Assembly (NCBI GenBank): GCA_017502165.1
Contig: JAFVVO010000005.1
Coordinates: 10,705-74,704 of the forward strand
DNA from: Clostridia bacterium
GTDB taxonomy: Bacteria; Bacillota; Clostridia; Christensenellales; QALW01
Direction of reading: 5' to 3'
DNA length: 64,000 nucleotides
The notes beneath the pieces are model-generated. The model worked only from the letters and a program-made list of their open reading frames with translations, had not been told where the DNA came from and searched no databases. The first letter of the stretch is position 1. Each line of letters starts with the position of its first letter. A program made the position numbers and the translations under genes. Shown here piece after piece: positions 5,020 through 55,250 of the stretch.

Positions 5020-5230
5020 TATCTTCACCTCCAGTTAATAAATCATATAAACTAATTTCCAACACTTTTGAAATGGGAATCAGCATTGATATATCGGGAA
5101 AAGATATGCCACGCTCCCATTTGCTGATAGCTTTATCGGTAATGTTTAATTTATCTGACAGCTCTTTTTGCGACATGCCTTGTTTTTTTCGATTCTCACA
5201 AATGAATTTGCCAGTTTTCTTAGCATCCAT
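5006..5230 (-). CDS. XRE-family helix-turn-helix transcriptional regulator
   Basis: MSQKELSDKLNITDKAISKWERGISFPDISMLIPISKVLEISLYDLL is a canonical Cro/C1 HTH. The start was set at the ATG at 5230 (MDAKKTGKF), which follows GAGAGGAGGG. Confidence 0.8.
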   Translation of the reverse strand: MDAKKTGKFICENRKKQGMSQKELSDKLNITDKAISKWERGISFPDISMLIPISKVLEISLYDLLTGGEDNEQE

Positions 5231-5336
5231 CTTTTCCCTCCTCTCTAACATGATTATATTACAGTTATAAAAGGGAGTAAACCGACTGTTGGTTTACTTC
5301 TTTCATATCAAAGACAAATTCTTATTTATCGGTTAG

Positions 5337-5365
5337 ATTATACCATACAACCACAAACAAATCAA
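5337..5365 (-). promoter_or_regulatory. sigma-A type promoter (TTGATT-17 bp-TGgTATAAT) for the XRE/membrane gene pair
   Basis: On the minus strand, TTGATT (5365-5360), a 17-bp spacer and TATAAT (5342-5337) with an extended -10 TG. The -35 box overlaps the 3' arm of the last hairpin of the module at 5363-5540. Confidence 0.55.
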
Positions 5366-5540
5366 GGCGTAGCCTTGTATTTCATCCGCAACTTGTTGCG
5401 GTATATCATCAGCCCGCAGGGCTGTATATCATCAAGCCGCGAAAAATGCACGCTATCGCGTGATGAGATGCAAGGGCGGTAAGCCGCCCTTGATGATATA
5501 CACGACTGCGTCGTGATGATATGCCAAGCCTGCGGCTTGG
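5363..5540 (-). repeat. structured intergenic module, ATATCATCA/TGATGATAT family
   Basis: Plus-strand layout: CAAGGC-gta-GCCTTG, CCGCAA-cttg-TTGCGG, TATATCATCA, GCCC-gca-GGGC, TATATCATCA, central CGCGA-13nt-TCGCG, TGATGAGAT, CAAGGGCGG-taag-CCGCCCTTG, TGATGATAT, ACGAC-tgc-GTCGT, TGATGATAT, CCAAGCC-tgc-GGCTTGG. The linker orientation flips at the centre. Confidence 0.75.
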
Positions 5541-5549
5541 ATAAACAAA

Positions 5550-5583
5550 AACAGAACATTTGTCGGTAGACAAATGTTCTGTT
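5550..5583 (-). terminator. intrinsic terminator downstream of tRNA-Trp
   Basis: Minus-strand hairpin AACAGAACATTTGTC-tacc-GACAAATGTTCTGTT followed by TTTTGTTT. A-runs on the other side make it potentially bidirectional. Confidence 0.8.
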
Positions 5584-5588
5584 TTTGT

Positions 5589-5663
5589 TGGCAGGGGAGA
5601 CGCGATTCGAACACGCAACCTACGGTTTTGGAGACCGCTACTCTACCGTTGAGCCACTCCCCT
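5589..5663 (-). tRNA. tRNA-Trp (anticodon CCA)
   Basis: The reverse complement is AGGGGAGTGGCTCAACGGTAGAGTAGCGGTCTCCAAAACCGTAGGTTGCGTGTTCGAATCGCGTCTCCCCTGCCA. It has a 7-bp acceptor stem, anticodon stem GCGGT/ACCGT with loop CTCCAAA, T-loop TTCGAAT and an encoded CCA end. Confidence 0.93.
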
Positions 5664-9429: not shown

Positions 9430-9505
9430 GCGGTAGTAACTCAGCTGGTAGAGTGCCACCTTGCCAAGGTGGATGTCGCGAGTTCGAATCTCGTCTATCG
9501 CTCCA
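9430..9505 (+). tRNA. tRNA-Gly (anticodon GCC)
   Basis: GCGGTAGTAACTCAGCTGGTAGAGTGCCACCTTGCCAAGGTGGATGTCGCGAGTTCGAATCTCGTCTATCGCTCCA. Anticodon stem CCACC/GGTGG with loop TTGCCAA, T-loop TTCGAAT and an encoded CCA end. Confidence 0.92.
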
Positions 9506-9507
9506 TC

Positions 9508-9583
9508 GGGTTATTAGCTCAGCTGGCAGAGCACCTGACTCTTAATCAGGGTGTCCGGGGTTCGAACCCCCGATGACCCACCA
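9508..9583 (+). tRNA. tRNA-Lys (anticodon CTT)
   Basis: GGGTTATTAGCTCAGCTGGCAGAGCACCTGACTCTTAATCAGGGTGTCCGGGGTTCGAACCCCCGATGACCCACCA. Anticodon stem CCTGA/TCAGG with loop CTCTTAA and an encoded CCA end. It starts 2 nt after tRNA-Gly. Confidence 0.92.
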
Positions 9584-9590
9584 ACAAAAA

Positions 9591-9626
9591 AGCCTAATTT
9601 GTCTACCAGACAAATTAGGCTTTTTT
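9591..9626 (+). terminator. intrinsic terminator of the tRNA pair
   Basis: AGCCTAATTTGTCT-acc-AGACAAATTAGGCT followed by TTTTTT. Confidence 0.85.
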
Positions 9627-9809
9627 GAACTAAGTGTTCCGCTTGCGCGAAACGTGAAGTTTGCTTCGCAAGTGAAGCGAGGCTACGCCTCGTGAAGTGT
9701 GCCTTAGGCACGATGTGCGGAATACTTAACTTCACTTTGCGCCCTCGGCGCAATACTTCACTTGGGCGCAAGCACCAAACTTCACTGCGGCACAGCCGCA
9801 ACTTCACTA
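9627..9809 (+). repeat. structured intergenic module, GTGAAG/CTTCAC family, copy A
   Basis: GTGAAG at 9654, 9672 and 9692; CTTCAC at 9730, 9756, 9780 and 9802. Hairpins between linkers: TTGCttcGCAA, CGAGGCtacGCCTCG, TGCCttaGGCA, TTGCGCCctcGGCGCAA, TTGGGCgcaaGCaCCAA, TGCGGCacaGCCGCA. A long-range pair AAGTGTTCCGC (9632-9642) / GCGGAATACTT (9717-9727) brackets the first half. Confidence 0.8.
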
Positions 9810-9838
9810 TTGAAATATTTGCAAGTATGTGCTACAAT
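9810..9838 (+). promoter_or_regulatory. consensus sigma-A type promoter (TTGAAA-17 bp-TACAAT) with no conventional gene downstream
   Basis: TTGAAA at 9810-9815, a 17-bp spacer and TACAAT at 9833-9838. It occupies the same position relative to the repeat as the ung promoter does at copy C. Confidence 0.55.
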
Positions 9839-9869
9839 ATTGGTGTAGGTGAGGTGCATATAATGTCCA

Positions 9870-9903
9870 GAACTTTGTCTGTGTAGACAAAGGTTCTTTT
9901 TTT
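9870..9903 (+). terminator. intrinsic terminator
   Basis: GAACTTTGTCT-gtgt-AGACAAAGGTTC (one bulged G) followed by TTTTTTT. Confidence 0.75.
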
Positions 9904-10038
9904 GAACTAAGTGTTCCGCAAGCGGAACGTGAAGTTTGCTTCGCAAGTGAAGCGAGGCTACTCCTCGTGAAGTGCGCTTCGCGCGATAAGATGCGGAACA
10001 CTTAACTTCACTTTGCGCCCTCGGCGCAATACTTCACT
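9904..10038 (+). repeat. structured intergenic module, GTGAAG/CTTCAC family, copy B (shorter, no promoter end)
   Basis: Nearly identical to copy A over GAACTAAGTGTTCCGC...GTGAAGTTTGCTTCGCAAGTGAAGCGAGGCTAC and over CTTAACTTCACTTTGCGCCCTCGGCGCAATACTTCACTT. AAGTGTTCCGC (9909-9919) pairs perfectly with GCGGAACACTT (9993-10003), and alternatively with the local GCGGAAC at 9922-9928. Confidence 0.8.
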
Positions 10039-10081
10039 TTCTGATATTGATATACAACAAAGACGTAATTTTACAAAAAAA

Positions 10082-29629: not shown

Positions 29630-29750
29630 TTAAAAAAGGGCACAGTTACTCTTTTACGAGTAATTGTGCCCAGACGGTCGGCTGAATAAAGGTTCTTTGT
29701 TTCTTTGTGGTGCTCCACGTTTATCCGTCAGTAGCAAAGAACTTACAATA
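29630..29750 (-). ncRNA. ZTP (pfl-motif) riboswitch with expression-platform terminator, upstream of purE
   Basis: The minus strand reads ...ACUGACGGAUAAACGUGGAGCACCAC...(linker)...CAGCCGACCGUCUGGGCAC. Compare the pfl consensus ACUGGCG...CGGGGAGC...CCGCCUGGGCA; the pseudoknot GACGG/CCGUC covaries with it. The terminator GGGCACAaTTACTC-gtaaaa-GAGTAAcTGTGCCC plus UUUUUU overlaps the conserved GGGCA. Confidence 0.8.
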
Positions 29751-54989: not shown

Positions 54990-55250
54990 ATTAAACCTAT
55001 GATTAAGAATAGTAACCTTTAATAAAGCTTTCAGCGAATTGCCGACGGTGTGAGGGCAATAGTGGATTTTCAGGCGAATGGACTTATGAGGGCAGTCGAA
55101 AGCGCAAGCAAGTAGTACCTGACGGCTCGTACCCGTTACTGTACGGTTCATATTTTAGTATGATTAAAGTGGATGTTTTCATCAATTTGGGTGGCACCGC
55201 AGGATTCAGTCCTGTCCCTTATTTACGGGATAGGATTTTTTGTTTTTAGC
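54990..55250 (+). ncRNA. T-box leader, Trp-specific (specifier UGG), with terminator
   Basis: Stem I distal hairpin TTGCC-gacGGTGTGAg-GGCAA, specifier context GAA-TGG-A at 55079-55081, AGTAGTAC box, T-box sequence AATTTGGGTGGCACCGCAGG at 55184-55203, and terminator TCCTGTCCC-ttatttac-GGGATAGGA plus TTTTTT. The promoter TTGACA (54953)-17-TATTAT (54976) is upstream. Confidence 0.85.

Follow-up and report, generated by a model that had tools for sequence, protein, structure and literature searches.

Positions 9628-9807 of a 64,000-nt stretch of DNA from a Clostridia bacterium of the QALW01 lineage (GCA_017502165.1, contig JAFVVO010000005.1, positions 10,705-74,704 of the forward strand; hereafter, the window) hold a string of small hairpins separated by short linkers, which we call copy A. 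Copy A is a member of a dispersed family of modular hairpin-linker arrays that contains Gut-1 (RF01706), and arrays of this family are physically coupled to genes for small four-helix-bundle proteins of the PF05635 family and recur behind tRNA genes or the ends of other genes. We consider, with a probability of about 0.55, that copy A is a gene-less copy of a tRNA-trailer cassette and that it would act as a structured RNA. The literature yielded nothing on Gut-1 beyond Weinberg et al. (2010), and neither GTGAAG hairpin arrays nor arrays beside PF05635 genes were found described in it. It appears to have gone unreported that Gut-1 makes up one half of a larger repeat, and likewise that S23p/Avd-like genes are linked with this repeat. 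An orphan RNA motif since 2010, Gut-1 here gains a concrete, testable partner in PF05635, itself an orphan, and vice versa.

Copy A, all features of which lie on the plus strand, follows a transcription unit consisting of tRNA-Gly (9430-9505) and, as its last gene, tRNA-Lys(CTT) (9508-9583), both located by ARAGORN and the latter scoring 66.3 bits against the Rfam tRNA model. The tRNA-Lys terminator, a hairpin with a perfect 20-bp stem, a 3-nt loop and a T6 run (9585-9627), stops exactly where copy A begins and constitutes its upstream hairpin, Hx. The array opens with a start box, L0 (AACTAAGT, 9628-9635), which is a linker variant whose columns are near-invariant in the GTGAAG family, followed by hairpin H0 (GTTCCGC-ttgc-GCGAAAC, 9636-9653). 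The forward half (9654-9715) carries GTGAAG at 9654, 9672 and 9692 and the hairpins H1 (9660-9671), H2 (9678-9691) and H3 (9698-9711); after the closing arm S0' (GCGGAATACTTA, 9716-9729) comes the mirror half (9730-9807), with CTTCAC at 9730, 9756, 9780 and 9802 and the hairpins H4 (9736-9755), H5 (9762-9779) and H6 (9786-9801). A preliminary description of this stretch had placed all seven linkers correctly, and the mini-hairpins that it listed are present; the interval of H5, missing from its list, is an imperfect hairpin. It had also noted a long-range pair of 11 nt with one G-T position. The pair and its G-T are there, but the length is 12 nt (9631-9642 with 9717-9728, 92% complementary), and the 5' arm of H0 has the closing arm as an alternative partner. 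The module is indeed wedged between the tRNA terminator and a promoter, a sigma-70-like site of the form TTGAAA-17-TACAAT with an extended TG (9810-9838) that abuts the array.

The regular grammar that was claimed for the module is real. Linker hexamers number 52 in the window against an expectation of 23.5 +/- 5.1, and the densest cluster has seven per 160 nt, a density for which the maximum across 300 dinucleotide shuffles of the window was three; shuffling of the GC-rich module alone gave a mean of 0.13 linkers and a maximum of two (3000 trials). Chance or low complexity is ruled out by these shuffles. The fold of copy A has a z-score of -4.6 on either strand. A coding repeat is likewise ruled out, the hairpin lengths not being multiples of three and the changes in them being compensatory. 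It had been stated that this is not an array of clustered regularly interspaced short palindromic repeats (CRISPR), and we concur: CRISPR arrays have direct repeats of 23-50 nt and unique, non-palindromic spacers of about equal length, whereas the repeats here are 6-8 nt long, occur in both orientations and are spaced by hairpins.

The suggestion that the module is no named element has not survived. An Rfam scan of the window at gathering thresholds left the array region without a match, but a permissive scan placed Gut-1 on the first half of copy A and of two further arrays in the window, copies B and C, with 41.6, 38.0 and 36.6 bits, respectively; these scores are below the Gut-1 gathering cut-off of 50 bits, and the accompanying E-values (8e-7 to 4e-5) come from small searches. 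The whole model (positions 1-77) aligns to 9627-9703, 9904-9978 and 4478-4404, with the hairpins kept and GUGAAG as the linker, and the matching stretch of copy A comprises the forward half plus 9627-9653. Matches of other Rfam families to the arrays were at chance level only. The publication of 2010 presents Gut-1, without further comment, as a non-coding RNA found only in human-gut metagenomes, and grades it as certainly RNA on the basis of covariation (PMC2864571). When the seed alignment is viewed with its flanks, many seeds consist of a tRNA or gene end, a terminator, a closing arm, three GUGAUAU/GUGAAAU units, a closing arm and four AUAUCAC/AUUUCAC units, rows that match the architecture of copy A including BAAZ01025322, BAAZ01000095, BAAZ01000322 and BAAV01002358. 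The seeds therefore carry the full two-part grammar, and the Rfam model covers just the first half of the unit. Gut-1 and the window copies share three mini-hairpins parted by single-stranded linkers of the (G)UGAAA type, but the linker in copies A-C is GUGAAG rather than GUGAAAU or GUGAUAU; and whereas Rfam describes a small RNA (sRNA) gene of the human gut only, the present element is two-part, multi-copy and found in metagenome-assembled genomes from gut and rumen. Copy A is thus Gut-1-like, sub-threshold, and represents a new dialect.

The preliminary description had made its case depend on further copies and on structural covariation, and both were found. In addition to copies B, C and a type D array in the window, a pattern scan of species-representative genomes for three AGTGAAGT-type linkers matched at least 120 stretches and provided at least 50 full copies. 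Among the matches listed, most are from gut or rumen Clostridia metagenome assemblies (Christensenellaceae, Oscillospiraceae, Acutalibacteraceae, Ca. Scatosoma and Ruminococcus), 47 full elements occupy 42 different gene contexts, and the commonest linker string is +++---- or its reverse. The family consensus comprises a variable strong hairpin (Hx), AACTAAGT (L0), H0, three units of GTGAAG plus hairpin, GGCAAACTTAA (S0'), and four CTTCAC with three hairpins between them. Other lineages have the linker dialects GTGAAAT, GTGATAT, TAATGAAG, TCGATAT and CATATCAT, and the halves are complementary in every dialect seen as a two-part element. That the hairpins differ while the linkers are conserved, as was said of copy A, holds within one copy but not across copies, where hairpins that occupy equivalent positions show homology and covariation.

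Several of the scanned genomes hold copies on more than one contig. In one assembled genome (JAFVQW01), the loci L110 and L111 (L numbers are our labels for loci and contigs) lie on different contigs and have in common not just the element but also its upstream hairpin, a terminator hairpin and a ~130-nt tail. This composite repeat of at least ~400 nt, found also in L114, L123 and L056 in differing gene contexts, is ordered as hairpin AGCGTGATACTC..GAGTATCACGCT, element, terminator hairpin AAAAAGAGAGAAC..GTTCTCTCTTT and the conserved tail, which terminates in a half-copy of the first hairpin. Whole units are gained and lost in the arrays, L053 having at least 14 GTGATAT units. At ~5200-5650 (reverse) of that locus, an array of GTGATAT plus hairpin, made from a three-hairpin super-repeat, abuts an array with four CTTCAC, which indicates that expansion of an array is possible and that different dialects can be direct neighbours. 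Arrays of unlike dialects do nest beside one another, and the mixed neighbours in L053, L095 and L099 look like separate arrays placed side by side. Four-unit arrays are also found singly, without a partner half; in a small sample these showed no bias of orientation. A pattern scan of viral sequences gave mostly unrelated repeats, the family profile matching only L149, L134, L182 and L183. On a practical note, the arrays break short-read assemblies, and annotation could take them for CRISPR-like arrays or sRNA genes.

The hairpin structure bears signs of selection. Many double compensatory changes occur in H0, H1, H2 and H5. Changes in the start arm are matched both in the 3' arm of H0 and in the distal closing arm, as illustrated by the sets GTTTGCC/GGCAA/GGCAAAC, GTTCGCC/GGCGA/GGCGAAC and GTGTTCCGC/GCGGAAC/GCGGAACAC; this three-way covariation points to two pairings that exclude each other. 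In L093, a naturally occurring deletion form, only the closing stem and the four mirror units are retained. As to whether elements always sit after terminators or tRNAs, which the preliminary description had raised, a hairpin with a folding free energy of -10 or lower has its end no more than 4 nt from the start box in 80% of 50 copies, but a T-run is present in only nine of the 50 and a co-oriented tRNA lies directly upstream of six. At the locus of a rumA-like methyltransferase gene (L030, L034, L107, L188-L198), the upstream hairpin falls within the last ~12 codons of the gene (…HVESVVCLTRRLDN, then stop), and TAA within AACTAAG is its stop codon. Where the 5' arm has changed, the 3' arm has changed with it, so the hairpin seems to dictate the tail of the protein.

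The preliminary description had read the G-T position of the long-range pair as a hint of a plus-strand RNA. This fits two observations on the family as a whole. The upstream open reading frame (ORF) is co-directional with the element in 29 cases versus 9, whereas the downstream ORF is random in this respect (18 versus 22), and a co-oriented tRNA directly precedes six of the 50 elements, though there are just 18 tRNAs in ~1 Mb of loci. In addition, G.U pairs in H4-H6 favour the sense strand, in 14 unique hairpins versus three. It should be noted that the differences in folding between the strands of each half are a trivial effect of G+U versus C+A content, and are not usable for the choice of strand.

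PF05635 (S23p, ‘23S rRNA intervening sequence protein’) is a very large family that, to our knowledge, has no known role outside diversity-generating retroelements (DGRs). An ORF of ~117 aa starts 15-30 nt past the last CTTCAC in several loci, and this ORF family scores 88-97 bits against PF05635 and 102-109 bits against TIGR02436 (four helix bundle protein). In loci selected for their arrays, all ten PF05635 ORFs adjoin arrays; the ORF of L079 has a GTGAAG half on one side and a CTTCAC half on the other and is nested in GTGCAG/CTGCAC arrays, and in L040, the ORF follows a TCGATAT/ATATCGA element. The converse selection gives the same result: in contexts picked by the protein alone, a two-part array is directly upstream in four of four. 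The first of these has a rumA-like methyltransferase gene, a GTGAAG/CTTCAC array and the four-helix-bundle gene; the second has a serine recombinase gene, a terminator, a GTGAAG/CTTCAC array and the gene; the third has rpsT, tRNA-Thr, tRNA-Tyr, a terminator, a GTGAAG/CTTCAC array, the gene, an acetyltransferase gene, a second array and a gene fragment; and the fourth has tRNA-Val, a terminator, a TAATGAAG/CTTCATTA array, a promoter and the four-helix-bundle gene. Viral contigs from a protein-based scan are similarly arranged, with tRNA-Ser, a terminator, a GTGAAAT/ATTTCAC array and the gene in L214, tRNA-Leu, a terminator, a GTGAAG/CTTCAC array and the gene in L218 and L219, and two tandem GTGAAAT/ATTTCAC arrays followed by the gene in L213. 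In gut Clostridia as in phage-like contigs, array and gene often stand immediately behind an operon's final tRNA and the terminator of that operon.

Forms with and without the ORF have their flanks in common. In a comparison of L084 and L040 with L034 (3096), L107 and L040 (1065), the last CTTCAC and a common tail, GGACAAATGT..TTTACAGCAGT, either have the ORF between them or lack it, with precise ends, and the ORF hence behaves as a discrete insertion or deletion. The viral contigs L215 and L216 have complementary repeats without hairpins before the gene. More generally, distant four-helix-bundle genes in IMG/VR contigs (L215, L216, L217, L220, L226 and L229) have other short repeats upstream, some without hairpins between them: complementary blocks of AATGAAT/ATTCATT, TTGAATTA five times, AGTTAG four times, AGTAATG/AGTTATG three times and TTCGTAA in tandem. 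L215 sits behind tRNAs and L216 behind what is apparently the truncated 3' end of a tRNA.

How copy A might act can be outlined from these observations. Transcription would run through the array in the direction of the upstream gene, yielding read-through RNA or a 3' trailer, and the transcript would fold into a string of stable mini-hairpins in which the invariant single-stranded linkers would serve as repeated recognition sites. These linkers could be bound in trans by an oligomeric four-helix-bundle protein; alternatively, or in addition, they could pair with the mirror linkers to give a processed structure resembling an rRNA intervening sequence. The local effect in the window would be that of a stable, structured block parting one transcription unit from the next promoter. 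We infer that all four arrays in the window, none of which has such a gene, are gene-less copies of the tRNA-trailer cassette. A broader and distinctly more tentative proposal is that arrays of the Gut-1 superfamily are the specific nucleic-acid partner of S23p/Avd-like four-helix-bundle proteins outside DGRs, the two forming a joint cassette that colonizes the 3' ends of tRNA and other transcription units; a protein oligomer would read the linkers, and gene-less arrays would be non-autonomous satellites.

Several observations do not sit easily with the structured-RNA cassette. Copies A, B and D each have a strong terminator in front of them, and their transcription would hence depend on read-through. 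The whole element folds with equal energy on both strands, and the opposite strand is matched by the family profile as well. The loops obey a grammar with reverse-complement symmetry (TNC triloops in the first half; GNA, ANA or GNNA loops in the second), which a single sense RNA does not predict. The four-helix-bundle gene is directly downstream in only five of 50 full elements, and a PF05635 ORF or remnant was looked for in the window and none was found. Several of the gene-array cases, moreover, represent one orthologous locus beside the rumA-like methyltransferase gene, leaving ~8-10 independent contexts, and that the protein would bind the array we infer purely from adjacency and from the role of Avd in DGRs. 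Pairing of GTGAAG with CTTCAC linkers, proposed in the preliminary description, is allowed by the complementarity of the halves, and RNAalifold pairs L1:L4', L2:L3' and L3:L2' to give a ladder of four-way junctions; but variant linkers of the GTGAAG family are uncompensated (~9 broken, two wobble), and the single four-unit arrays have no partner half with which to pair. Because the linkers are nearly invariant and the few variants uncompensated, the linker covariation test in this family is uninformative or slightly negative. Kissing pairs between complementary loops of the two halves were considered and rejected, since the loops do not match when compared by eye (e.g. in L034 and L110).

The main rival is that the arrays are selfish DNA repeats akin to repetitive extragenic palindromes (REPs), bacterial interspersed mosaic elements (BIMEs) and REP doublets forming hairpins (REPINs). 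On this account, which we regard as unlikely, the functional form would be single-stranded DNA, the unit of linker plus hairpin would be read by an HUH/Y1 enzyme resembling the tyrosine transposases that accompany REPs (RAYTs), or by another enzyme that copies the inverted doublet, and the RNA structure would be incidental. For the symmetry under reverse complementation, the single arrays and the GNA loops it offers a better explanation than the favoured reading does: the halves constitute an inverted doublet with a symmetric grammar, four-unit arrays also occur singly, and C-GNA-G triloops, which are very stable in DNA, are frequent. The elements also grow and shrink by whole units, and their dialects nest together. 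Like the known systems (PMC6006769, PMC3116915), they are extragenic, dispersed, multi-copy and located at gene 3' ends, with a short conserved tag at the foot of a hairpin, inverted doublets as well as single units, and several classes per genome in mosaic clusters. REPs have as their tag the tetranucleotide GTAG or GTGG, placed 0-2 nt 5' of the foot of the hairpin (PMC6006769), and the tags of the arrays resemble it in placement; they are, however, GTGAAG, GTGAAAT, GTGATAT and others, not GTAG or GTGG. The hairpins inside one element also differ, each half carrying three or four unlike ones, whereas a REP has one conserved palindrome; the earlier opinion that copy A is no textbook REP is borne out. 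Repeats of the REP kind typically flank the gene of their cognate RAYT/Y1 transposase. No transposase family recurs among the ORFs in the ~0.9 Mb surrounding the elements and no RAYT/Y1 gene was seen there, the sole specifically and repeatedly adjacent family being the non-catalytic four-helix-bundle protein. A test for miniature inverted-repeat transposable elements, the marks of which are terminal inverted repeats and a target-site duplication, found no direct repeats flanking 30 oriented copies, and thus no such duplication; between copies, homology sets in with AACTAAG or with the upstream hairpin's foot. Nor was an empty site found, relatives of the neighbouring lipoprotein (42% identity) having no tRNAs at that locus, and a metagenome scan with the 3' end of tRNA-Lys giving one relative, with a different terminator and without the element, and no insertion polymorphism. 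Retention of elements at orthologous sites with compensatory change, and the G.U pairs of the second half that favour one strand, also speak against a repeat of this type. If the array-protein cassette does exist, it would parallel the relationship of REPINs and RAYTs, but with a non-catalytic protein and probably a mechanism at the RNA level.

Two other explanations are less probable still. The Rfam label ‘Gene; sRNA’ implies a free-standing gene for a trans-acting sRNA, with its own promoter and terminator, and both the grading of Gut-1 as RNA and the strong fold of copy A agree with such a gene. We nevertheless think it improbable, since no promoter lies upstream and the element begins 0-4 nt past a hairpin or terminator; moreover, there are four arrays in 64 kb, several genomes carry the element on two or more contigs, many copies occupy the gap from one stop codon to the following start codon, and the Rfam model describes only half of the conserved unit. 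The least probable of all is that the arrays are binding sites in double-stranded DNA, of the iteron or operator kind, at which the linkers, with their TGA/TCA core, would be half-sites for a sequence-specific protein. The linkers are indeed short, invariant and present in both orientations, an RTGAW core is common to all dialects, and the arrays in the window abut promoters. But the spacing in copy A is irregular (18-38 bp), convergent and divergent linker arrangements occur on one architecture, and the spacers are constrained to be hairpins with compensatory changes, which is sensible only for a single-stranded nucleic acid.

The BOX elements of Streptococcus pneumoniae are intergenic repeats of modular build too, in which the internal modules vary in number and the terminal parts are able to pair, but their modules are conserved blocks of 45-59 bp, whereas the arrays have linkers of 6-8 nt and variable hairpins; we know of no sequence relationship between the two. 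The intervening sequences of 23S rRNA offer another parallel, the S23p ORF of Coxiella being located in a selfish intervening sequence that is excised by RNase III (PMC4990558). These have in common with the gene-bearing arrays a PF05635 protein, a stable-RNA transcription unit, complementary flanks and an ORF that is prone to loss, and the position of the L079 ORF between two complementary array halves is reminiscent of them. The arrays, by contrast, are behind tRNA operons or ordinary genes rather than inside 23S rRNA helices, and their flanks are repeated linker-hairpin units and not one long stem. The PF05635 family also resembles Avd, the accessory protein of DGRs, which is a four-helix bundle that works with a structured RNA (PMC10053308). 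The resemblance is restricted to the fold family; in the loci examined, the surroundings of the arrays contain no reverse transcriptase, template repeat or variable repeat.

The window has four arrays in its 64 kb, copies A, B and C and the type D array. The family profile, built from 26 members, matches only the first three, with 108, 79.8 and 39 bits. Copy B (9904-10040, plus strand) has three GTGAAG and two CTTCAC and is 95-98% identical to copy A; a second hairpin with a T-run (9873-9903, plus strand) serves as its Hx, the 3' half of which has 80% identity with the tRNA-Lys terminator. The diverged copy C (4478-4309, minus strand) is preceded by a gene of 146 aa (5028-4588) and followed by the promoter (4285-4257) of a 227-aa ORF (4239-3556), which encodes a PF03167 uracil-DNA glycosylase, an assignment made by position in L001. 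The type D array (5540-5363, minus strand), which the preliminary description overlooked and which has no Rfam match, lies behind tRNA-Trp (5663-5589) and its terminator (5588-5545) and abuts a promoter (5365-5337, minus strand). Its linkers are three of the CATATCAT type (one being CATCTCAT) and then three of the ATGATATA type (one being ATGAAATA), and its closing arm is CCAAGCCGC/GCGGCTTG; the architecture is as in copies A-C, but relative to this common architecture the polarity of the linkers is inverted with respect to the GTGAAG family. Strong sigma-70-like promoters lie 0-30 nt after copies A, C and D, in each case on the strand of the array. Independent short-read contigs of the organism (L002-L006; Logan, ENA) end ~110 nt past a 215-aa gene, inside copy B, as fits assembly breaks at a repeat.

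The layout of tRNA, tRNA, terminator, copy A, short unit and copy B parallels that of L208 minus its genes; the four-helix-bundle link could not have been recognized from the window, where the gene is absent. The short unit between copies A and B (9810-9903, plus strand) consists of the promoter-like site, ~35 nt and the hairpin with its T-run, and is a possible transcription unit of ~55 nt. It may specify a very small sRNA, or be the empty frame left by a gene since lost, and it showed no similarity to genes of the four-helix-bundle family. Two further RNA elements in the window, unrelated to the arrays, score above their Rfam thresholds: a T-box leader at 54990-55222 on the plus strand (104.6 bits) and a ZMP/ZTP riboswitch at 29661-29745 on the minus strand (57.5 bits).

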